Shown: positions 38,282-48,956, numbered from the stretch's first letter. The stretch: DNA of 64,000 nt from an uncultured Candidatus Micrarchaeota archaeon (GCA_903835385.1 CAILMQ010000063.1:5234-69233), one strand, 5' to 3'. Notes: generated from the sequence alone by a model not told the origin. A program made the numbers and translations.

Positions 38282-39514
38282 TTATTGCCTGGAAGGATAT
38301 AAAACAAGCAGCCCGAGAAGGAGGAATGCCGTTGGGCAGGCCTGCGCAGGCTCGTTCCCGCCGCCATTAGTGCCCGGAGCCGGCAGCGCCGGCACGTCCA
38401 GGCTCAGGTTCCCCGAGACCGACGCGTCGTCCAGCGATGCCGCCAGCGGCATGGTGTAATGGTAGCCCGGCTTGAGCATGGAAAAGTCCAGGCCGTATTC
38501 CCTGGCCGCGTTCTCATAGGGCCCCAGGAGCACCACCGTGCTCTCATTCACCCCGCCGGCCCCGGAAAGCTGCGCCTGGTACATGCCGAAAACATAGTCG
38601 TCCCTCCCGTTCTCCAGCGTGACATTGAGCTCATGGGCAGGCCCGTCGAAAACGAATGACAGGCTGCGGCCTTTCGGGTCATTGCTCTGGTTTATGAACT
38701 CCGCGGTACCGCTCGTGTTGAACCGGAGACCGCCGTTCCCGGGCCCCAACGAGCGCACAATGTCGAACACGTCGTTCTGGTCCCTCCCCTTCTCGCCGGC
38801 AACATGGGAATTGTCCAGCATGCCGGCTTCTCCGAAGGTGGAATCCACGGGCAGCCAGCCGTAACCCGGCACGTATATCTCGGCCCATGCATGCGGCTGC
38901 CATCCCCCTCCGTTCACGAACCCGCTTACGAACCTGGTGTCCATGCCGAGATAGCGGGCCATGGATATGGTGAGGTGCGAATATTCCACGCACACCCCCT
39001 GCCGAACCGCGTAGACGTCCGTGGCGCTGAGCACCCTGCCGAAATACGAGTCGTTGTAGGTGATGTAGCCGTGGACGAAATTCGTTATGTTCCTGACGGT
39101 CTCCAGCGTGGTGTCCGCAGCGAGGCCGTCCGCTGCGGCCGCGATATCCGGGTTCCACCTGGTGAGGTTCGTTGCGTTGAGCGGCCACGTCCTGCCCAAT
39201 GCCGGGTCAGCCCTGATGTCGCTGTTGAAATCCACCAGGACAACGGCGCTCGCCCTGAGCGTGCTTTCCGTTCCGTTGTATCTCAGGCGGATGTTGCCTT
39301 CCTGGTCGCTGACCACCTGCATCGGCGGGTCCGTCTCTATGCCCAGCACCTTCTGGTTGGAATCATTGACCGCCAGCGCGCCTTCGAAATAATAGCCGCC
39401 GCTGCTCACAATGGTCCAGGTGCGCTCCACCCTGACCGTTGCAGGGCCGAAGCCCATGCCGAGGCAGGACGATGCGAGGACGAGCAGGAGCAGGGCGGCA
39501 ACCGGGGTTTTCAT
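38282..39514 (-). CDS. Secreted transglutaminase-like cysteine protease-fold protein
   Basis: Signal peptide MKTPVAALLLLVLASSCLG. GVCVEYSH (Cys), HAWAEIY (His) and PVDST (Asp) form a transglutaminase-core triad. There is a hydrophobic C-terminal segment. The start overlaps the purD stop (ATGA). Confidence 0.7.
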   Translation of the reverse strand: MKTPVAALLLLVLASSCLGMGFGPATVRVERTWTIVSSGGYYFEGALAVNDSNQKVLGIETDPPMQVVSDQEGNIRLRYNGTESTLRASAVVLVDFNSDIRADPALGRTWPLNATNLTRWNPDIAAAADGLAADTTLETVRNITNFVHGYITYNDSYFGRVLSATDVYAVRQGVCVEYSHLTISMARYLGMDTRFVSGFVNGGGWQPHAWAEIYVPGYGWLPVDSTFGEAGMLDNSHVAGEKGRDQNDVFDIVRSLGPGNGGLRFNTSGTAEFINQSNDPKGRSLSFVFDGPAHELNVTLENGRDDYVFGMYQAQLSGAGGVNESTVVLLGPYENAAREYGLDFSMLKPGYHYTMPLAASLDDASVSGNLSLDVPALPAPGTNGGGNEPAQACPTAFLLLGLLVLYPSRQ

Positions 39515-40855: not shown

Positions 40856-41266
40856 ATGAAGAAGAAGCAGGACAGGCCGAAGGGGGTTTCCGCGCCCTTT
40901 TTCACAAGTGCCATAAACCCGACCCAGCTTGCAATCAACATCGAGCCCGCCCCGGGACAGGAGGCCCGCATCTTCGAGGCCAGGAGCAGCGCGGTGAAGG
41001 AGCATTTCGACCATGACATGGAGCGCCTGCGCCAGTCGCTCGCCCCTGGAAGGCTTGAGGCAAAGCCGGCTATGGCGCATTCAAACACTCCTGCGGACCT
41101 GCACCTCGCGATGAGGCAGAACATAGACCCGAGAACCGGCAATGTGGATGGCACGAAGATGCTGCCGGCAGGGCCGGTTGCTTCGCTACTGCCAAATGCC
41201 AATCATCCGATGCACCCCGAGAACCAACTAACCGCTGCGATGAAAAAGCTGGGGCACAGGCTCTGA
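40856..41266 (+). CDS. Hypothetical protein
   Basis: 136-aa ORF with no motif recognised. Its Pro/Ala-rich composition suggests disorder. Confidence 0.4.
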   Translation: MKKKQDRPKGVSAPFFTSAINPTQLAINIEPAPGQEARIFEARSSAVKEHFDHDMERLRQSLAPGRLEAKPAMAHSNTPADLHLAMRQNIDPRTGNVDGTKMLPAGPVASLLPNANHPMHPENQLTAAMKKLGHRL

Positions 41267-41464
41267 CGTATCCGCCTTCTATTTCCTTCCGCCGCCAATC
41301 ATCTGCGCGAGCGTGTCGAAAAGCGACTTCTCCATGGGCTTCTTGATGAGGAAGCGGCGATGCGATGGATAGTTCTTCAGGATGTCAAAAGAGTATTGCC
41401 TGACTACCATCTATTCCACCGCCCGCTGCCATTGGAAATCCAGCCCGTCCGTTTCCATCCTCAC

Positions 41465-42169
41465 CTATTCCACCTTCCGTTTGATGTAGCCCTCCTTTAT
41501 GAGCATGTTCAGCCCGTCCTCCACGCGCCCCGGAGGCACGCTGCTGGCCTTGCCGAACTCCATGATGTCTATGTCGCCATTGTGCATCTTGAGCCAGTTG
41601 TAGAGCTCCTCCCTGAGCCGCTCGTCCGACATGGCGCGGAGCTTTTCCAGCAGCTCCCGCAGCTCGTCCCTGCGCCTCTCGCATTCAAGCAGTATGCGCG
41701 CGTTCTCCTCGCTGGAGCCGACCAGGTCCTGGTACCTGGCATTGAGCGAATCCGCCTTCGCCTTCAGCTCCTCAAGCTCCGCCGAGAGCTCCACCGCGTC
41801 CCTGCCCACGACCTTGGATATGTCCGAGAGCAGGCCTATGAGGTGCGAGAATATGGCCGACGGCTTCACTTCGTAATAGTCCTCGGAGAGCGTGAGCACG
41901 TTCATGAGCACGGGCAGCAGCTCCAGCATGCGCACCCGCTTGGAAACGTTCGGCGGAATGCCGTAGACCATCTCTATGGTGCTTTCCAGGAACGTTATCC
42001 GATAATCCAGGTTCGGCTTGCCCTTGAGGTCCTCGCCCTGGACCCTCTCCACAACGAGCCTTTCGTTGGTGTAAGTTATTGAGGTGAAACCCAGCTCGCC
42101 AAGCGCCGAAGCCAGCTTTGCAAGCTGCCCCTTCCTAGACGCCGGCACAGTTATCCTTTCTTCGCTCAT
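41465..42169 (-). CDS. Coiled-coil protein with C-terminal winged-helix-like domain; third gene of the VirB4-like ATPase operon
   Basis: The start lies 2 nt after the ATPase stop. A central heptad-rich segment (ELSAELEELKAKADSLNARYQDL...) is present. The C-terminal IDIMEFGKASSVPPGRVEDGLNMLIKEGYIKRK resembles a wHTH. Confidence 0.55.
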   Translation of the reverse strand: MSEERITVPASRKGQLAKLASALGELGFTSITYTNERLVVERVQGEDLKGKPNLDYRITFLESTIEMVYGIPPNVSKRVRMLELLPVLMNVLTLSEDYYEVKPSAIFSHLIGLLSDISKVVGRDAVELSAELEELKAKADSLNARYQDLVGSSEENARILLECERRRDELRELLEKLRAMSDERLREELYNWLKMHNGDIDIMEFGKASSVPPGRVEDGLNMLIKEGYIKRKVE

Positions 42170-42171
42170 GC

Positions 42172-43608
42172 CTATTCCTCCAGCACAACGTCGACCAGGC
42201 CCTTGGTCGCCTTCCTCATCTTAACGAGCGAGAAGGTCCTTATGAGGTTCCTCTCGTCCATGCCCAGCTGCCTCAGGAACGATATTATCGCGGACTTGCT
42301 GTAGCCGAACTTCTCGAGCATGGCCACGAACTGCTCGCTGTCCATGAGCCCGTCGGTCTTCTCGAACTCCCTTTTTATGAGGCCGAGCTGGTCCTCGGTC
42401 AGGCCGAGCTCGTAGAGCATCTTGACCAGCTGCTCCCTCTCCACCTCTATGTCCATGCCATCACCCGTTATCTTCATGAGGAAAAGCGGTTCCTCGCCGT
42501 CTATCTTGTCCATGAGGAAGGTGTTTATCTTCGATTGCCTCCTCGCGAATATCATGTTCACCGCCGCATCGCCCACTCCGAACTTGCCTATCTCGTTGTC
42601 TATGAACTGGGAGTACCCGATGGAGGTGCGCACGTAGTCCCTGTATTCCCTGAGCACGAGCCGCATCACGAATATGGTCCCGATGTTCGAGAATATGGTC
42701 TTGTGCATGTCCGTCGGGTTCTGGGTGGCCATCAGGAGCGCGAAATTGTACTTGCGCCCCTCGCGCACTATTGCGATGACCTCAGAGCGCTCGTCCTGCG
42801 CGATTTTCCACGCCTCGTCCAGCACTATGAACAGCCGCACCCCGGCTTCCTCCGCCGCGCCCTCGGCCCTCATTATTTCCTTCACGTACTGGAGTATGGT
42901 GAGCCCTGCGAGCGAGCGCACCTCCTCGGTGGGAAGGCTGTGCAGGTCCAGGCACACGAGCCCGGAGCTGGTGAGCGCCTTTATGTCCAGCGTGGAATCG
43001 CCGGCGAAGAAATCGCAGCCCTCGGACGTGAACCTCTTGAGCAGCCGCGCGGCCTTCTTCCTCTTCTTCTTGTCCAGCCACCTGACCACGTCCGAGAGGT
43101 TCGCCTTCTTCTTGGAGCCGTAGACCGCCTCAAGCGCCTCCTCTATCTCGTCGCGCTCGCGGGGGAAGGATTTGAGGTCCACAAGTATGTCCAGTGCGGA
43201 CACTATCTGCTTGATGCGGGAGCTTTTCGGCAGCCCGCCCACCAGGTCCAGCAGGTTGAGCCGCTCCTTGCCCAGGTCAATCACCCGGCCGCCGGCCTGC
43301 CTCACCCATTTGTCGTACTCGCCCACCCAATCCAGTATCAGGGCATTGGAGTTCCAAATCAGCGCGGCCCTTGTGAGGAACGTCTTCACCAGGTAGGACT
43401 TGCCGGAACCGGTTATGCCCACCACCGCCATGTGAGGGTTGATGAGCTTGCGGTGGTCCCAGAACACGGGCGCGTGGAGGAACCTGGTCTTGCCCAGGTA
43501 GATGCCCTCGCCGGGCATGGAGAGCAGCAGCTCCTTGCGCGGCTCCGGCGGATGGACCAGTATCATCTTGCGCGCCAGGTCCTTGGAAAAAAGGTAGGAA
43601 AGCTTCAT
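42172..43608 (-). CDS. VirB4/TraC-type (FtsK-HerA superfamily, DUF87-like) ATPase
   Basis: Walker A GITGSGKSY, ILDWVGEY (compare VirB4 DPKGEY), Walker B FIVLDEAWKI, REGRKYNFALLMATQNPTDM (VirB4-like RK..../ATQ motif). Confidence 0.75.
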   Translation of the reverse strand: MKLSYLFSKDLARKMILVHPPEPRKELLLSMPGEGIYLGKTRFLHAPVFWDHRKLINPHMAVVGITGSGKSYLVKTFLTRAALIWNSNALILDWVGEYDKWVRQAGGRVIDLGKERLNLLDLVGGLPKSSRIKQIVSALDILVDLKSFPRERDEIEEALEAVYGSKKKANLSDVVRWLDKKKRKKAARLLKRFTSEGCDFFAGDSTLDIKALTSSGLVCLDLHSLPTEEVRSLAGLTILQYVKEIMRAEGAAEEAGVRLFIVLDEAWKIAQDERSEVIAIVREGRKYNFALLMATQNPTDMHKTIFSNIGTIFVMRLVLREYRDYVRTSIGYSQFIDNEIGKFGVGDAAVNMIFARRQSKINTFLMDKIDGEEPLFLMKITGDGMDIEVEREQLVKMLYELGLTEDQLGLIKREFEKTDGLMDSEQFVAMLEKFGYSKSAIISFLRQLGMDERNLIRTFSLVKMRKATKGLVDVVLEE

Positions 43609-43622
43609 TCAATCGCTCCGCC

Positions 43623-44402
43623 CTAAAAAATCTCGTCCTTGATGTCTTCCTGCGTCGTGGGGAAGAACTGCTCCCACTCGAAGCACCTGAGCATGTCCAG
43701 GTCCGAAAGCTCGGAGATGTCGCAGCCCAGCGAGCTGGACAGTATGGTTTTCAGCTCCTTAGCCTGCCTGGCCGCCCTGGAAGCCGCCTCGTCCCTTGTG
43801 AGCCCGAATGAGGTCGTTGATGCGAACGCGATGAGCTCCACGGGCCTCTCGCCCCTGGTTATCCTGTCCAGCATCCTGTTCCACATGGCGATTTCCCTGT
43901 CCAGGCGCACTATCTCGTCCGAGGACGAGCCCGCCTTGGCCTTCTTCGCCTCCGCGGCGGAGCGCCTGGTCTTTATGTCCTCCAGCTCTCTTGAAAGCTC
44001 CACTGCGGATACCAGCAGCGATATCTTGACCACGTACTTGAGCGCGGCTATGGCCCTTTCAAAGGATTCGAACATGGTCGTCTTGTCCGCCTCGTTCTTG
44101 TCCATGGAACTCTCGTAGAAACGGATTTCCAGGAATTTCGTGGCGTAGTATCCGGAGGCGGTCTTCTTCGTTATGTAATCCCTGGTCGGGGGCACCTCGT
44201 ATCCGGACCTGACCTCCACCACGTTCGCCGCCCGGGTTATCATGGGTATGAGTATGTAGCCGTATTTCCAGACCGTGAGGCTGGTGCAGAAAAGCAGCGC
44301 GGCAGCCAGCGCCACCACCGAATTGCCATAAACCAGCGATGCGGCAAGCGCCAGCAGGCCGCCGGCGAGGGCTGTGACTGTGATTGCTCGGTTGACAAAC
44401 AT
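43623..44402 (-). CDS. Two-TM membrane protein with cytoplasmic helical domain (VirB3 / VirB4-N-terminal-like position)
   Basis: Two N-terminal hydrophobic helices are followed by a charged helical domain. It ends 14 nt before the ATPase start. Confidence 0.55.
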   Translation of the reverse strand: MFVNRAITVTALAGGLLALAASLVYGNSVVALAAALLFCTSLTVWKYGYILIPMITRAANVVEVRSGYEVPPTRDYITKKTASGYYATKFLEIRFYESSMDKNEADKTTMFESFERAIAALKYVVKISLLVSAVELSRELEDIKTRRSAAEAKKAKAGSSSDEIVRLDREIAMWNRMLDRITRGERPVELIAFASTTSFGLTRDEAASRAARQAKELKTILSSSLGCDISELSDLDMLRCFEWEQFFPTTQEDIKDEIF

Positions 44403-44462
44403 GGTTCTCCCATGGTGCTTTTGACCTGAATGTATTTAAAATACCACTGGCGAAGTGAAACA

Positions 44463-45209
44463 ATGACAAGAACCATCAGAGAAGCCTATCAGAAGATAAT
44501 GGACAAGGAGCCCCATGGGAAAAACCAGGAAGGCAGCCTCCTGCGGCAGGTGATTCTCGGCGGCCAGGACGGGCTTGTCAACGTGCTGGGCATAGTGCTG
44601 GGCCTTGCCGGCGCGGTGGCCGTGAATCCGAACATAAGCTCCAGCGCCCTTCTCGTGGGCGGCCTGGCCGCAACGTTCGCGGAATCCGTAAGCATGGCAG
44701 CGGTCGCCTATACCTCGGGAAAGGCGCAGCGCGATTTCTATTACAAGGAGCTGGAAACCGAGAAAAGAGAGATGAGGGAGATACCCGAAGTGGAGCGCCA
44801 GGAGATAAGGCTAATCTACATGAAAAAGGGCTTCCGCGGCAGGCAGCTGGAAGGCATAGTGGAAAAAATCTGCAGCGACGACGAGCTGTGGCTGGAGACC
44901 ATGATGACCGAGGAACTGGGGCTCGCCGAAAGCAGGAGCATCAACCCTTTGCGCGAGGGCGCGGTGGTCGGGTTCGCGTCTTTCATAGGTTCGCTCGTGC
45001 CTTTGGCCCCGTTCTTTTTCATGAACGCGTCCGCGGCAATAGTCCCGTCGCTTGCAGTCACGGCGGCCGTGCTTTTCGGAGCCGGTGCGTACAAGGGAAG
45101 GACCACGGCCGGCGAGTGGTGGAAAGCCGGGCTGGAGATGGCGCTAATCGGCATGGGCGCCGCCGTCATCGGGTACATCGTCGGCAGCCTGGCAGGAAAA
45201 GTGTTCTAG
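44463..45209 (+). CDS. VIT1/CCC1-family iron/manganese transporter
   Basis: LRQVILGGQDGLVNVLGIVLG and GLAATFAESVSMA motifs, a cytoplasmic acidic helical insert, and C-terminal TM helices. Confidence 0.75.
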   Translation: MTRTIREAYQKIMDKEPHGKNQEGSLLRQVILGGQDGLVNVLGIVLGLAGAVAVNPNISSSALLVGGLAATFAESVSMAAVAYTSGKAQRDFYYKELETEKREMREIPEVERQEIRLIYMKKGFRGRQLEGIVEKICSDDELWLETMMTEELGLAESRSINPLREGAVVGFASFIGSLVPLAPFFFMNASAAIVPSLAVTAAVLFGAGAYKGRTTAGEWWKAGLEMALIGMGAAVIGYIVGSLAGKVF

Positions 45210-45235: not shown

Positions 45236-46318
45236 TCAGATATTTATTACCGAAGACAGCCCGATTTCCGAGCCCAGCAGCTTTCCGGCCTCATTCACGA
45301 ATACGATAGTGACCGCAAGCGAAAGCAGCGGTGCGAGGACGGAATAAAGCAGCACCTTTGCCAGGGAATCGGAGTTGGATTGCGCAATCAGCGTGAGGTC
45401 ACCGGTGAAATCCGCCCTGCCGCCGGGGACCGCCATGCCCCCAGTGAAATTGGAGCAGGACGAGTTGGCGGATGAGACGTTGGTAGAATTGCCGGTCATG
45501 TTGCCGGGCAATCCAGCGGTTGAATTGCCGGGCGAACTGCCGGCCGCGCACCTGCCTGACATCAGGTCCAGTTTGCCTGCGATGGCATAGTTGCTGTTCA
45601 GGTCAATCACAGGCACCGTGGCATAAAGGCTGTTGGACGTGAAATTCGCCATCACTTCCGTGGCATTTGCCAGCGACGGCCCGGGGTCCGGGAAAACCAG
45701 CACGAACGCAGGGTAGAATATGTAGAGCCCTATGGCGAGCGCGATGAGGAAGCCGCCTGCCTTCCTGGTTGCGAAAAGCGTCCTGAGCACCAGGCCGACG
45801 GGCAGCAAAAGCAGGAGCGAGTTCTGGGCCACGAAATTCAGCAGCTGTATGTTTAGCTCCAGCAGCATGAGCAGCAGCTGCATGGAGAAGAGCTGTCCTG
45901 CCAGGATGTTGGCCACTCCGGAAAGGTTCATGAAAGGCTGTATGGAGAACGCGACGAAATCCAGCTTGAGCGACTGGTAATAGCCCACCAGCTCCGCGGC
46001 CCTGGATGTCTCCTGGAGCAGGGAAAAGAGCGCGGCCTTCACGCCTCCGAGCGTGCAGGCGAGCTGTGCAGGGGCGTCCCCGGTGCCGCACTGGGTGGTG
46101 ACCAGGGACGAGCTTATTCCCGACATGAGGGCTATGACGGACGCGAGGCCGCCTATTATGGCGGCGTTTATCACGGACTGGGCGAGCTCATCCACGCCGA
46201 AGTTTTCCACCCGCTTGTATCCGAAGGCCCTTCCCACCCCTATTAGTATGCCTGCGAGCGCTATGGATGCGGCCACTATTACGACCGCTATGGACATCCC
46301 AACGTATTGCTCCGCCAT
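45236..46318 (-). CDS. Polytopic membrane protein with Asn/Ser-rich extracellular loop (VirB6-like topology; unverified)
   Basis: At least five hydrophobic helices. An N-x-S/T-rich loop (NSTAGLPGNMTGNSTNVSSANSSCSNFT) is present. It lies 37 nt downstream of the Cys-rich repeat protein gene on the same strand. Confidence 0.55.
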   Translation of the reverse strand: MAEQYVGMSIAVVIVAASIALAGILIGVGRAFGYKRVENFGVDELAQSVINAAIIGGLASVIALMSGISSSLVTTQCGTGDAPAQLACTLGGVKAALFSLLQETSRAAELVGYYQSLKLDFVAFSIQPFMNLSGVANILAGQLFSMQLLLMLLELNIQLLNFVAQNSLLLLLPVGLVLRTLFATRKAGGFLIALAIGLYIFYPAFVLVFPDPGPSLANATEVMANFTSNSLYATVPVIDLNSNYAIAGKLDLMSGRCAAGSSPGNSTAGLPGNMTGNSTNVSSANSSCSNFTGGMAVPGGRADFTGDLTLIAQSNSDSLAKVLLYSVLAPLLSLAVTIVFVNEAGKLLGSEIGLSSVINI

Positions 46319-46355: not shown

Positions 46356-48143
46356 TCACTGTGGCTGGCTGCTGTTGCCGCCTCCGAAAAGGCTTCCGAG
46401 GAATTTGGATATTGCGTCAAATATGCTCGGCTGGAACCCCCCTGCGCCGGTCCCTCCGTTCGTTGGGGAAGGCGGAGGCGCGCCCGCATTGGGGCATGAG
46501 CGCGTTTCAGTGCCGTCGGTGCAAACCTTGTATTCGCATCCGTTGGCATCGGTCACGCTCTTGCATTCCACGGTTTCTTTTCCCGGGCAGCTCGTCCCCA
46601 CGTACTGGCTGCCGCAGGTTTTCACCGAGCATCCGTTCGCGTCGCTAGCCACGGTGCAGTTCTGCTCGTTGCAGTATCTTTCCGTGAAGCCGTTGGTGCA
46701 GGTTTTCACGCTGCAGCCGTTCTCATCATAGACCTTGCACTCCACGTTGTCCTGCGGCGCCGCAGGGCAGTCCTTGGCCTTGTAGCCGTCGCTGCATTCC
46801 TTTATCCGGCATCCGCTCGCCGGGTCCGTGGTCACGTTGCACTGCTGGGTGGCGTTCTGGCAGTAAATGCCGCTTGTGCCATCGCTGCACTTCTTGACGT
46901 CGCAGCCTTTGTTGTCCTTCTCCACGGAGCAGGCCACGGTCGTTGGATTTGCCGTTGGCGTGGCCGCGCACTGCTTCTCCTCATACCCGTCCTCGCAAAC
47001 CTTGTGGTAGCACCCGTTCTGGTCCGTGTACTCCTTGCACACCACCCTGCATTGCAGGAGAAGCTTGCAGGAGTTGTAGTAATAGCCGTCGCTGCACTGG
47101 ATTTCCACGCAATTGTTCTGGTCCACTGACTTATTGCAGCCCGTGGTCTGGCCCGTGCCGGAGCAACGGACCTGCCTGCACCCGAAGTTGTCCTGGTAGG
47201 TGTCGTAGGTTCCGCCTTTGAGCTTGCATCCGCTCATTTGTGCCTGGAGCGCCGTATCGTCAGGGCAGGTAGCCTTGCTGCACGTGACCACCGCGCAGCC
47301 ATTGCTGTCTTTTGTCAATTCATAGTCATAATCCGATTCCTTGCAGGCTTCCGCCTTCCTTTTCATGTCCTCGTCAGACGGGCAAACCGTTGGCTGTTTG
47401 CAGTTTACTACCATGCACTGGTTGCTGTCATAGGAATATGAGACGTCGAAGCCCGCACCAATGCACTTCCTCTCTTCGGCCGCGAGCTGCTCCTTGTCCG
47501 GGCACGGATTCGTGGCCGCGCACTGCCCCGTAGCGCAGTTGCCGGTTGGCGTTGCGTTGCCGGTGGCAGTCTGGTTCACGCATTTGACCTGTTCGCACTT
47601 GTATTGGTCGTAGTAATATTCATACCCCTGCCCGTATCTCTTGCATTCCGTCACCGAAGCGTCGAGCTTGTCGCTTGTAGGGCACGGATTCGTGGCCGCG
47701 CACTGCCCCGTAGCGCAGTTGCCGCCCGGCGTCGCATTCGTGCCTGTGGAGGTCTGGTTCACGCATTTGACCTGCTGGCACTGGTATTGGTCATAGTAAT
47801 ATTCGTATCCGTATCCGCTTGCCTTGCATTCTGACACCGAAGCGCCCAAATCGTCGCTTGTCGGGCATGGATTCGTGGCCGCGCACTGCCCCGTAGCGCA
47901 GTTGCCGGTTGGCGTTGCGTTGCCGGTGGCAGTCTGGTTCACGCATTTGACCTGCTGGCACTGGTATTGGTCATAGTAATATTCGTATCCGTACCCGGTT
48001 CTCTTGCATTCCGTCACCGAAGCGTCGAGCTTGTCGCTTGTCGGGCATACATACCCTGCGACCGCGGTGTTCTGGGTAACGGAGAGCGCCGCGCTGAGAG
48101 AAACCCCAACCAACATCAGAATGAGAAATACGTGCGTCTTCAT
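46356..48143 (-). CDS. Secreted cysteine-rich repeat protein
   Basis: Signal peptide MKTHVFLILMLVGVSLSAALS (ATG at 48143). Three near-identical 60-aa repeats (CPTSD.L.ASV.ECK..GYGYEYYYDQYQCQQVKCVNQT..GN...CATGQCAATNP) are followed by many shorter D.NGC.VK.C.DG....C modules and a Gly-rich tail. Confidence 0.65.
   Translation of the reverse strand: MKTHVFLILMLVGVSLSAALSVTQNTAVAGYVCPTSDKLDASVTECKRTGYGYEYYYDQYQCQQVKCVNQTATGNATPTGNCATGQCAATNPCPTSDDLGASVSECKASGYGYEYYYDQYQCQQVKCVNQTSTGTNATPGGNCATGQCAATNPCPTSDKLDASVTECKRYGQGYEYYYDQYKCEQVKCVNQTATGNATPTGNCATGQCAATNPCPDKEQLAAEERKCIGAGFDVSYSYDSNQCMVVNCKQPTVCPSDEDMKRKAEACKESDYDYELTKDSNGCAVVTCSKATCPDDTALQAQMSGCKLKGGTYDTYQDNFGCRQVRCSGTGQTTGCNKSVDQNNCVEIQCSDGYYYNSCKLLLQCRVVCKEYTDQNGCYHKVCEDGYEEKQCAATPTANPTTVACSVEKDNKGCDVKKCSDGTSGIYCQNATQQCNVTTDPASGCRIKECSDGYKAKDCPAAPQDNVECKVYDENGCSVKTCTNGFTERYCNEQNCTVASDANGCSVKTCGSQYVGTSCPGKETVECKSVTDANGCEYKVCTDGTETRSCPNAGAPPPSPTNGGTGAGGFQPSIFDAISKFLGSLFGGGNSSQPQ
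47501..48043 (-). repeat. Three tandem coding repeats of about 180 bp inside the Cys-rich protein gene
   Basis: Units start at 47501, 47681 and about 47864, each opening with GGCA(C/T)GGATTCGTGGCCGCGCACTGCCCCGTAGCGCAGTTGCC. The third unit matches unit 1 in its first half and unit 2 in its second half, which is a mosaic pattern. Confidence 0.75.
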
Positions 48144-48194
48144 GAGGCGGCTATTCCAGCCAAGATTTAAAAATCTGGACTGTTTCTTCCTGTC

Positions 48195-48956
48195 ATGGAG
48201 CCGTTCCTGAAAAAACTGTATTCCCCGCCGAAGCTTTCGCACAAGGGGCAGAACGGCAAGCTGCTAATCATCGGAGGGAGCAGGCGCTACCACGGCGCGC
48301 CGGTGTTCTCGCTCCTTGCAGCCAGGAGGTTCGTGGACCTGCTTTATTTCTATCCAGGGGAGAACGACCCTCAGCTCATACACGCGGTCAAGCGCATACC
48401 CGAGGCCATGGTGGTCTGGGACCTGAAGCACACCGCCGAGATGGACTGCGTGCTCTTCGGCATAGGCCTCTCGGATGCGAGGTTCGACGTGAATTTCGTG
48501 CTGGAATACGCGCGTTCCGTTGTCGTGGACGGCGACGGGCTGAAGCTGGTGAAAGGGCGCGTGCCGGCCGGCTCCATAATCACGCCGCATGAGGGCGAGT
48601 TCAGGATGCTCTTCGGCATGGAAGGCACGAGGAAGAACGTGCAATCAATGGCAAAGGAGCACAGCTGCGTGATAATCAAGAAGGACCCTGCCGCGGACAT
48701 CATAAGCGACGGGAAGCGGACCGTGCTGAACACGGTCCACAACCAGGGCATGACCAAGGGCGGCACCGGCGACGTGCTCGCAGGCCTCATAGCAGCGTTC
48801 GCGTGCAAGAACGACCCGTTCACAGCTGCGGTCGCAGGCACATATCTCAACGGATATGCAGGAAACCGGCTCGTGAAGCGGTTCGGATACAACTTCTGCG
48901 CATCGGATTTGGCCGAGGAACTCGCCCTATCACTTAAAACACTTTCTAGGAAATAA
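48195..48956 (+). CDS. ADP-dependent NAD(P)H-hydrate dehydratase (YjeF C-terminal / carbohydrate-kinase family)
   Basis: HKGQNGKLLIIGGS..YHGAP near the N-terminus and the GGTGDVLAG motif near the C-terminus. Confidence 0.8.
   Translation: MEPFLKKLYSPPKLSHKGQNGKLLIIGGSRRYHGAPVFSLLAARRFVDLLYFYPGENDPQLIHAVKRIPEAMVVWDLKHTAEMDCVLFGIGLSDARFDVNFVLEYARSVVVDGDGLKLVKGRVPAGSIITPHEGEFRMLFGMEGTRKNVQSMAKEHSCVIIKKDPAADIISDGKRTVLNTVHNQGMTKGGTGDVLAGLIAAFACKNDPFTAAVAGTYLNGYAGNRLVKRFGYNFCASDLAEELALSLKTLSRK

Follow-up and report, generated by a model that had tools for sequence, protein, structure and literature searches.

Archaeal translocation systems of the Ced (Sulfolobales) and Ted (Thermoproteales) type derive from the type IV secretion system (T4SS) and combine a VirB4-like ATPase (CedB or TedB), a VirB6-like polytopic protein (CedA or TedA) and a VirB2-like pilin (CedA1 or TedC). 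CedB and CedD are reported to have N-terminal domains that superpose on portions of that of VirB4, and about half of these proteins bear transmembrane (TM) helices (Wu et al., 2025, PMC11868833). CedA itself has been described as bearing a CedA1 domain (Beltran et al., 2023, PMC9905601). We describe here a five-gene locus, g0–g4, in a 64,000-nucleotide stretch of DNA from an uncultured Candidatus Micrarchaeota archaeon (GCA_903835385.1, CAILMQ010000063.1:5234–69233; "the window" hereafter denotes this whole stretch). We consider it moderately likely that the locus encodes a domesticated membrane translocation machine of the Ced/Ted-like kind, derived from a T4SS and fixed in the chromosome. 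The VirB4/CedB-like motor of this module is divided between two genes.

This kind of system is already known. What is new is the split motor, the partner proteins g3 and g4, and the fixation of the module in a DPANN lineage, in all of whose sampled genomes it occurs. The split motor, g3 and g4 were not found in the literature searched, which also held no paper combining "DPANN" and "CedB"; the few papers joining Micrarchaeota or DPANN with VirB4, HerA or type IV secretion do not address the module, judging by title and abstract. One database record automatically labels a g2 orthologue "CedB."

A Five-Gene Module on the Minus Strand

A preliminary description of this DNA had proposed three minus-strand genes separated by gaps of 14 and 2 nucleotides. 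The listing of open reading frames (ORFs) confirms that layout, but the module extends beyond it to five genes, with a membrane protein gene upstream and a short gene downstream. The five genes are:

g0, 45236–46318, minus strand: 360-amino-acid polytopic membrane protein with about six TM segments; candidate channel, analogous to VirB6/CedA
g1, 43623–44402, minus strand: 259 amino acids; two-helix membrane hairpin and cytoplasmic α/β domain; detached front half of the motor
g2, 42172–43608, minus strand: 478-amino-acid ATPase; motor domain at residues ∼30–352, helical C-terminal domain at ∼370–478
g3, 41465–42169, minus strand: 234-amino-acid cytoplasmic partner; candidate DNA- or substrate-binding adaptor
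g4, 41279–41410, minus strand: 43-amino-acid conserved small basic protein

Among the matches listed, identities reach 68%–100% for g2, 60%–92% for g1 and 40%–100% for g3. Because of these identities, and because gene order is kept in nearly all of ∼70 loci of the same clade, g1–g3 are real genes and not chance ORFs.

The Motor Is Divided between g1 and g2

The translation of g2 contains every motif quoted in the preliminary description: Walker A (GITGSGKSY, residues 64–72), DWVGEY (93–98), Walker B (VLDEAW, 262–267) and RKYN...ATQNPTD (RKYNFALLMATQNPTD). Two Pfam domains, AAA_10 (1e-16) and DUF87 (4e-15), score above their gathering thresholds. The best NCBIfam match is CedB (99.8 bits, E = 1.4e-28), which covers model positions 249–572 of 590 and is followed by VirB4-like CD1110 (2e-23), VirB4_plasma, TraC (2e-16), CedD and VirB4_CagE. 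By these matches, g2 contains a VirB4/CedB-type P-loop ATPase domain. Membership of CedB proper (equivalog NF041017) requires at least 700 bits, and on this scale g2 is a distant relative of CedB, not an orthologue. Likewise, the VirB4 family model (TIGR00929, at least 643 bits over contiguous N- and C-terminal domains) is matched with 53.6 bits, by the C-terminal domain only.

The g2 protein starts only ∼55 residues ahead of its own P-loop, and the VirB4-type N-terminal domain, together with a membrane anchor, is present on a separate polypeptide, g1. The evidence comes from fused homologues of 870–913 amino acids in metagenome-assembled genomes of Thaumarchaeota and Thermoproteota (e.g., P0161, P0168 and P0174; loci L163–L165, L268 and L271), which are the closest relatives of g2 that we found outside Micrarchaeota (31%–35% identity). 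Read from their sequences, these proteins comprise two TM helices, a ∼200-residue domain, the ATPase, a winged-helix (wHTH) domain and a PD-(D/E)xK-like domain. They span the CedB model nearly from end to end: residues 102–641 of P0161 correspond to model positions 75–587 and residues 69–634 of P0174 to positions 51–587, of 590. Their first ∼260 residues are homologous to g1. A hidden Markov model (HMM) of 111 g1 sequences, drawn from all three Micrarchaeota clades described below, matches residues ∼2–263 in nine of nine fused proteins (E = 4e-14 to 6.5e-5), and hhalign pairs the g1 alignment with the fused N termini at a probability of 91.3% (E = 9.6e-7). Profiles were needed for this comparison, as BLASTP of g1 against one fused N terminus gave no significant match (17% identity). 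A Foldseek search with the AlphaFold2 (AF2) model of g1 ranks TrwK/VirB4 chains of the R388 T4SS (7o41_A and 8rtd_V) highest by probability (0.90–0.96), with E values of 0.035–0.047 that are not significant alone; the g1 profile searched against PDB sequences returned only coiled-coil noise. With g1 corresponding to the N-terminal domain and g2 to the ATPase domain, the two genes together encode a split VirB4/CedB-like protein.

A hydropathy scan of g1 reveals two N-terminal hydrophobic helices, which the AF2 model places at residues 2–25 and 28–56. The preliminary description had recognized this two-TM N terminus correctly and compared it with VirB3. VirB3 proteins are two-TM proteins of ∼100 residues recognized by VirB3, TraL or PrgI profiles; g1 has 259 residues and no Pfam or NCBIfam match at E ≤ 1. 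It is thus more than a VirB3-like peptide, consisting of a TM hairpin joined to a VirB4/CedB-type N-terminal domain, and would be analogous to VirB3 only in the topology of the hairpin and in its position.

A division of the motor is also seen at two further loci (L264:3035–6911 and L266:2070–5857), where a gene for a g1-like protein of 264–265 residues precedes one for an ATPase of 618–636 residues. The L264 copy is recognized by the g1 HMM (E = 1.5e-12), and the L266 copy is assigned by size and position only. Both loci are Ced-type clusters, and their gene order is a protein with a weak CedA1-Pfam match, a 271–281-residue polytopic protein, the g1-like gene and an ATPase that bears wHTH and nuclease-like domains. 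The motor may have been divided on more than one occasion, or its division may be older than Micrarchaeota.

The C-terminal helical domain of g2 (∼370–478) is common to all three Micrarchaeota clades sampled and was not seen in the outside relatives examined. Some loci of clade B have a stand-alone ORF of 100 amino acids after the ATPase (L108:7538–7840, L109:7708–8010 and L110:1992–2294) that is homologous only to this domain (HMM positions 386–475), which indicates that the domain is an independent module. In several Micrarchaeota species the g2 orthologue is ∼1000–1025 residues long (L060:4240–7284, L066:4213–7227, L067:2406–5483 and L070:2490–5489), owing to an insertion of ∼516–524 residues with LAGLIDADG-type motifs in the Walker A loop, directly after GITGSGK. 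The insertion begins with Ser and ends in ...VHN followed by Ser, the signature of an intein; the g2 copy in the window is uninterrupted.

The ATPase Family Lies outside HerA in a Rough Tree

VirB4 and HerA share the FtsK-HerA P-loop fold, and a PDB search with the g2 family profile scores HerA chains at 78–87 bits and the VirB4 C-terminal domain (4AG5) at 69 bits. Since these scores are about equal, the P-loop core alone cannot separate the two. The preference for VirB4/TraC over HerA expressed in the preliminary description therefore stands on the N-terminal domain and the gene context, while its argument from motifs is not decisive alone. HerA proteins have a HAS-barrel N-terminal domain, for which g2 has no room because its Walker A motif begins at residue 64, and a NurA or effector partner. 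The module contains no NurA, Mre11, Rad50 or effector partner, and its ATPase is membrane anchored through g1. NCBIfam HerA equivalogs, with cut-offs of 800–970 bits, score g2 at 35–51 bits (35–38 for repair HerA, 49–51 for defense HerA).

We placed the ATPase in a rough neighbor-joining (NJ) tree (47 sequences, 313 columns, 200 bootstraps). HerA forms a clade of its own (bootstrap 100) with the g2 family outside it, so that the grouping with HerA repair helicases named in the preliminary description as contrary to its proposal is not observed. The Micrarchaeota clades cluster with the fused Thermoproteota forms (bootstrap 53), and clades A and B fall together (94). Outside Micrarchaeota, most of the relatives recovered belong to VirB4/TrbE, MPF-FATA VirB4 or Sulfolobales CedD/CedB-like proteins, with two that are HerA-like, and the best matches in a tblastn search of plasmids are annotated as VirB4-like or TraC. 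The g2 family itself is compact: an exhaustive search of representatives recovers 111 at E ≤ 1e-30, and the group with 68%–100% identity forms one 50% cluster.

The window is part of a Micrarchaeota (DPANN) chromosome. Close g2 homologues all come from Micrarchaeota assemblies, the nearest genome being a 1.57-Mb chromosome (OY970229.1, 96% identity). The neighbors of the module are housekeeping genes, for family B DNA polymerase (PolB), geranylgeranylglyceryl phosphate synthase (PcrB), purD, carbamoyl-phosphate synthase, deoxyhypusine synthase and PCNA. GC content is uniform across the window, and the surroundings of the module contain no integrase, relaxase, coupling protein or capsid gene. 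A conjugative element would be expected to carry a relaxase, a coupling protein and an integrase and to vary in location; here the purD and transglutaminase-like flanks recur across species genomes of clade A. The statement that the locus is not an obvious conjugative element is borne out, and on account of the housekeeping neighbors and uniform GC content we rejected a mobile element.

These observations bear on the proposal that the locus is a HerA-type antivirus defense system, or what is left of a provirus or of a conjugative element that had integrated. PADLOC HerA models score g2 at up to 82.6 bits, the model mad8 also matches, and defense-type HerA chains are the top sequence matches in the PDB. 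However, the HAS barrel is absent, the partner proteins have no significant PADLOC match (the best is LmuB, E = 0.008, to the g3 coiled coil) and lack nuclease, Sir2 and other effector domains, and the conserved gene order and housekeeping flanks of clade A are the opposite of the patchy distribution of defense islands and mobile elements. With the ATPase alone matching PADLOC HerA models, we rejected a defense system, and we regard the proposal as a whole, relics included, as very improbable.

The Module Is Conserved across the Sampled Micrarchaeota

The module is present in all Micrarchaeota genomes recovered here, in three clades. Clade A, which contains the window, was sampled at ∼70 loci from Micrarchaeota assemblies and GTDB species genomes. 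Its gene order is a 364–368-residue membrane protein, a protein of 260 residues, the ATPase, a protein of 234–237 residues, a small ORF, purD and a transglutaminase-like gene, and nearly all of the loci have the order g0-g1-g2-g3(-g4). Clade B, which is paralogous (ATPase 42%–49% identical), retains g1-g2-g3; clade C (Micrarchaeaceae and others; 25%–35% identical) retains g0-g1-g2, together with a weak second ATPase and small TM proteins. Joint conservation of the genes, on which the preliminary description had made its proposal depend, is thus found in orthologues and in two paralogous clades. We rejected purD and the transglutaminase-like gene as parts of the module, as their linkage is confined to clade A and is probably incidental.

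Additional genes accompany the paralogous clusters. Clade B loci (L077 and L083) encode a protein of 164–183 residues, with a possible Cys-rich N terminus and two TM helices, and a two-TM protein of 850–913 residues after g3. Clade C loci (L100, L119, L125 and L132) contain a g3-like gene, genes for three small TM proteins and one for a second ATPase of 722–745 residues, whose weak DUF87/CedD similarity suggests that it is possibly a CedD/VirD4 analogue.

In clade C and part of clade A, a small protein with a signal peptide or two TM helices is encoded directly upstream of g0. One such gene, of 80 codons (L063), matches Pfam TrbC/VirB2 (PF04956) with 29.3 bits, above the gathering score of 27.9, and other small upstream proteins match T4SS_pilin, the best of them at E = 4e-4. 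Scanning for this pilin gives 32 loci, all from Micrarchaeota, and 22 of the 32 have the order pilin-g0-g1. The genomes of the window's own sublineage carry the pilin gene on a different contig. The absence of a pilin noted in the preliminary description therefore holds for the window and fails for its relatives, in which a TrbC/VirB2-type pilin gene often directly precedes g0. The clade C pilin-like family aligned with four CedA1-like sequences in hhalign gave no significant match; the link to pilins comes instead from the Pfam TrbC and T4SS_pilin matches.

Such conservation could also suit a housekeeping, FtsK-like membrane-anchored pump that clears or segregates chromosomal DNA at division, with g3 as its DNA-binding partner and the T4SS likeness reflecting shared FtsK-HerA ancestry. 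The module occurs in every Micrarchaeota genome recovered, with 68%–100% identity among the 120 matches listed, and its neighbors serve replication and biosynthesis. In several species the P-loop holds a homing-endonuclease intein, as is typical of essential conserved genes, and the wHTH and long coiled coil of g3 are accompanied by a weak match to an archaeal SMC-related protein. Yet the nearest relatives are in Ced-type clusters with CedA1 pilins, a pilin gene directly precedes g0 in many Micrarchaeota, a division pump has no need of the large glycosylated (sequon-bearing) extracellular loop of g0, and a division function would not usually come with two or three paralogous clusters in each genome. 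We consider such a pump quite unlikely.

g0 Is a Candidate Channel

The g0 protein has ∼6 TM segments, an extracellular loop of ∼105 residues with eight N-glycosylation sequons, an invariant Cys pair (C77 and C88) in the first extracellular loop, and a conserved cytoplasmic motif, LP.G..LR..F.TRK.GG. Its orthologues in relatives are 52%–54% identical and lie directly upstream of g1, as is the case in most clade A and clade C loci, and the protein is retained in the divergent clade C (HMM E ∼1e-60 to 1e-78).

The nearest relatives outside Micrarchaeota lie in Ced-type clusters that encode, in this order, a Pfam CedA1 protein of 84–104 residues, a polytopic protein of 271–300 residues, a small TM protein and the ATPase, and in two of these loci the polytopic protein itself bears a CedA1 domain. 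Aligned by hhalign with five to eight such CedA-like polytopic proteins, g0 gives probabilities of 35%–61% (E = 2e-5 to 3.5e-4). The alignment is collinear over 240–277 columns; the controls give 0.1% when reversed and, in 20 block-shuffled versions, at most 12.8%. A scan of metagenome contigs for further loci with fused forms returned only distant ATPases (≤32% identity) and did not enlarge the CedA-like alignment. Considered with its position in the gene order, these data are consistent with g0 being a probable but unproven channel of the VirB6/CedA type.

g3 and g4 Are Probable Micrarchaeota-Specific Partners

The AF2 model of g3 (pLDDT 85) comprises an α/β domain (residues 1–101), a 76-residue helix (103–178) and a three-helix bundle (182–226). 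The long helix is probably a coiled coil, judging from the model, and the bundle has a sequence pattern resembling a winged helix. Both features had been noted in the preliminary description, which missed the N-terminal α/β domain. The model has no match at E < 0.01 in PDB or BFVD, and the g3 profile returns only coiled-coil noise from PDB sequences. Fold matches to KA1, START-like and TBP-like domains were weak and inconsistent, and we did not rely on them. The g3 gene directly follows the ATPase in clades A and B and is weakly conserved in clade C.

Directly after g3, 57 loci contain an intact ORF for g4, which has variable K/R-rich N-terminal extensions and a core motif Y.F.FE.l+.YP..R.f.iK.Pl++S..D....l.G. 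The small gene located after g3 in L001 and L002 has a conserved C-terminal core, which the g4 protein of the window matches. As far as our searches reach, homologues of g3 and g4 are restricted to Micrarchaeota.

One alternative retains a T4SS-like machine but gives it a role other than DNA transfer, either assembling a surface filament or translocating proteins or host molecules at the site of host contact. VirB4 is primarily an ATPase of pilus assembly and the translocon, for which a pilin, a polytopic protein and VirB4 make a minimal set, and relaxase and coupling protein are absent here; moreover, for T4SS clusters of Patescibacteria without a relaxase, co-option to other functions has been proposed (PMC12102498). 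On the other hand, the ATPase of the nearest relatives is fused to wHTH and PD-(D/E)xK-like domains, g3 carries a wHTH-like bundle, and the only experimentally characterized archaeal relatives, the Ced systems, import DNA (PMC9905601, PMC11868833). We view a role without DNA as unlikely, though less so than a division pump.

Comparison with Known Systems

The Micrarchaeota module resembles the Ced and Ted systems in being chromosomal, with neither relaxase nor integrase, and in its minimal parts: a membrane-anchored VirB4-like ATPase, a polytopic partner and, in relatives of the window, a small two-TM pilin. CedB is the best curated profile for g2, and the nearest relatives outside Micrarchaeota adjoin Pfam CedA1 proteins. 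In contrast to Ced and Ted, the motor is encoded by two genes and has an extra helical C-terminal domain, its CedB score is far from that of the family, g3 and g4 have no counterpart, and the window contains no CedD-like second ATPase, the one weak candidate being that of the clade C loci. The hosts also differ, a DPANN symbiont lineage as against free-living Crenarchaeota.

The core of bacterial T4SSs (VirB3-VirB4-VirB6 with VirB2), especially that of the monoderm MPF-FATA type, shares with the module a VirB4-type ATPase with its N-terminal domain, a two-TM element ahead of the ATPase (as in VirB3 or VirB3-VirB4 fusions), a TrbC/VirB2 pilin recognized above the gathering score in relatives, and the order pilin, polytopic protein, ATPase. 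The module differs in lacking VirB8, VirB1, a coupling protein and a relaxase, and in being split between the N-terminal and ATPase domains rather than between VirB3 and VirB4; g1 has no sequence match to VirB3 profiles, and no similarity between g0 and VirB6 was detected directly. Upstream of the fused Thermoproteota and Thaumarchaeota proteins lies the same polytopic partner, in which the motif is matched. The fused proteins differ from the Micrarchaeota motor in being single polypeptides in which C-terminal wHTH and PD-(D/E)xK-like domains take the place of the helical domain and the separate g3.

A Model for the Translocation Machine

The CedB match, the NJ tree and the conserved neighborhood support the earlier view of a membrane-associated VirB4/Ced-like translocation ATPase module. 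In the model that we propose, g1 would supply a two-helix membrane anchor and the VirB4-type N-terminal domain of the motor, and g2 a hexamer-forming P-loop ATPase domain with the helical C-terminal domain found in Micrarchaeota. The g1/g2 complex, once assembled, would probably dock on g0, which holds the position of the VirB6/CedA channel and probably has its fold. ATP hydrolysis would then drive a polymer through the g0 channel, and g3 and the small basic g4 would serve in the cytoplasm as adaptors, binding the substrate or handing it over. DNA is the most likely substrate, by analogy with Ced import and because wHTH and nuclease domains are fused to the nearest relatives, and transport would, again by analogy with Ced, be inward. 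In the sublineage of the window the pilin gene is unlinked, and a gene of the VIT family is inserted between g0 and g1.

Several observations count against this model. All curated profile scores of g2 are far below the family cut-offs (99.8 against 700 bits for CedB, 53.6 against 643 for VirB4_CagE). On the P-loop core alone, HerA chains in the PDB score slightly higher than VirB4, PADLOC HerA models reach 82.6 bits, and the deep nodes of the NJ tree are unsettled (bootstrap ≤20). The confidence of the g1 model is only moderate (pLDDT 67), and the structural match that it gives to TrwK/VirB4 is not significant alone. For g0, searches against Pfam (with the single sequence and with 20 family members) and against PDB sequences (with the profile) found no match, the g0 HMM scores two polytopic partners from Thermoproteota at ∼0 bits, no better than shuffled sequences, and its relationship to CedA is, on the alignments, only suggestive. 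The pilin HMM has no match in any of the six frames of the 64-kb window. Finally, g3 and g4 have no recognizable relatives, and a module with neither coupling protein nor relaxase offers no direct handle on the substrate.

If the locus is nevertheless a Ced/Ted-like translocation machine, as we favor, it shows that a VirB4 motor can function with its two halves encoded separately, which bears on how VirB4, CedB and CedD assemblies are built, and Ced/Ted-like systems would then be known from outside Crenarchaeota too. Micrarchaeota and other DPANN archaea have small genomes and limited biosynthesis, attach physically to their hosts and obtain what they need from them. A strongly conserved core of the T4SS/Ced type is a concrete candidate for a machine at the site of host contact. 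More tentatively, the module could be the Micrarchaeota counterpart of the T4SS of Patescibacteria, a conjugation-type apparatus fixed throughout the phylum that pulls DNA, as genes or nucleotides, or other macromolecules from the host at contact. We hold this extension to be doubtful. Were it correct, the module would be essential for the episymbiotic lifestyle, and this conduit for feeding on the host would have its lineage-specific adaptations in the split VirB4, g3 and g4. In Patescibacteria there is a parallel, a T4SS that is cited as essential for epibiotic growth (PMC12102498).

Expression Signals and Neighboring Genes

Two TATA-box-like elements were read from the sequence:

44433–44443, strand not assigned: AT-rich TATA-box-like TATTTAAAATA, 31–41 nucleotides upstream of the g1 start codon
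46341–46349, minus strand: TATA-box-like TTTAATTAA, ∼23–31 nucleotides upstream of the g0 start codon

The first is a putative promoter of g1-g2-g3(-g4) and lies between g1 and a divergent VIT-family gene, or within the annotated 5′ end of the latter. The second is a putative promoter of g0, whose transcript would then carry a short leader or none. Shine-Dalgarno-like sequences (GGAG and GGAGGA) are found 7–9 nucleotides upstream of the g2 and g3 start codons, which fits co-translation.

The VIT-family iron/manganese transporter gene (44430–45209, plus strand) is inserted between g0 and g1 on the opposite strand. It is seen only in the sublineage of the window (the window and L004); in most relatives, g0 and g1 are 30–70 nucleotides apart. 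Its true start is probably the ATG at 44463, because the annotated ATG overlaps the TATA-like box.

Directly upstream of g0, a gene at 46356–48242 (minus strand) encodes a Cys-rich secreted or anchored protein of 628 residues with several tandem modules (CPTSD.L.ASV.ECK..GYGYEYYYDQYQCQQVKCVNQT...). This protein has no Pfam match, is absent from this position in L001 and L002, and could be a surface adhesin.

On the other side of the module, the space between g4 and purD is occupied by an ORF of 136 amino acids with no Pfam match (40856–41266, plus strand). In relatives g4 and purD are almost adjacent, except in L004, which has a gap of ∼1.6 kb. Beyond this, a gene at 38282–39514 (minus strand) overlaps the purD stop codon by 4 nucleotides and encodes a transglutaminase-core protein that begins with a signal or TM segment and has a hydrophobic anchor at its C terminus. 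A transglutaminase-core gene follows purD in nearly all clade A loci, and its product is probably a surface protein co-transcribed with purD.

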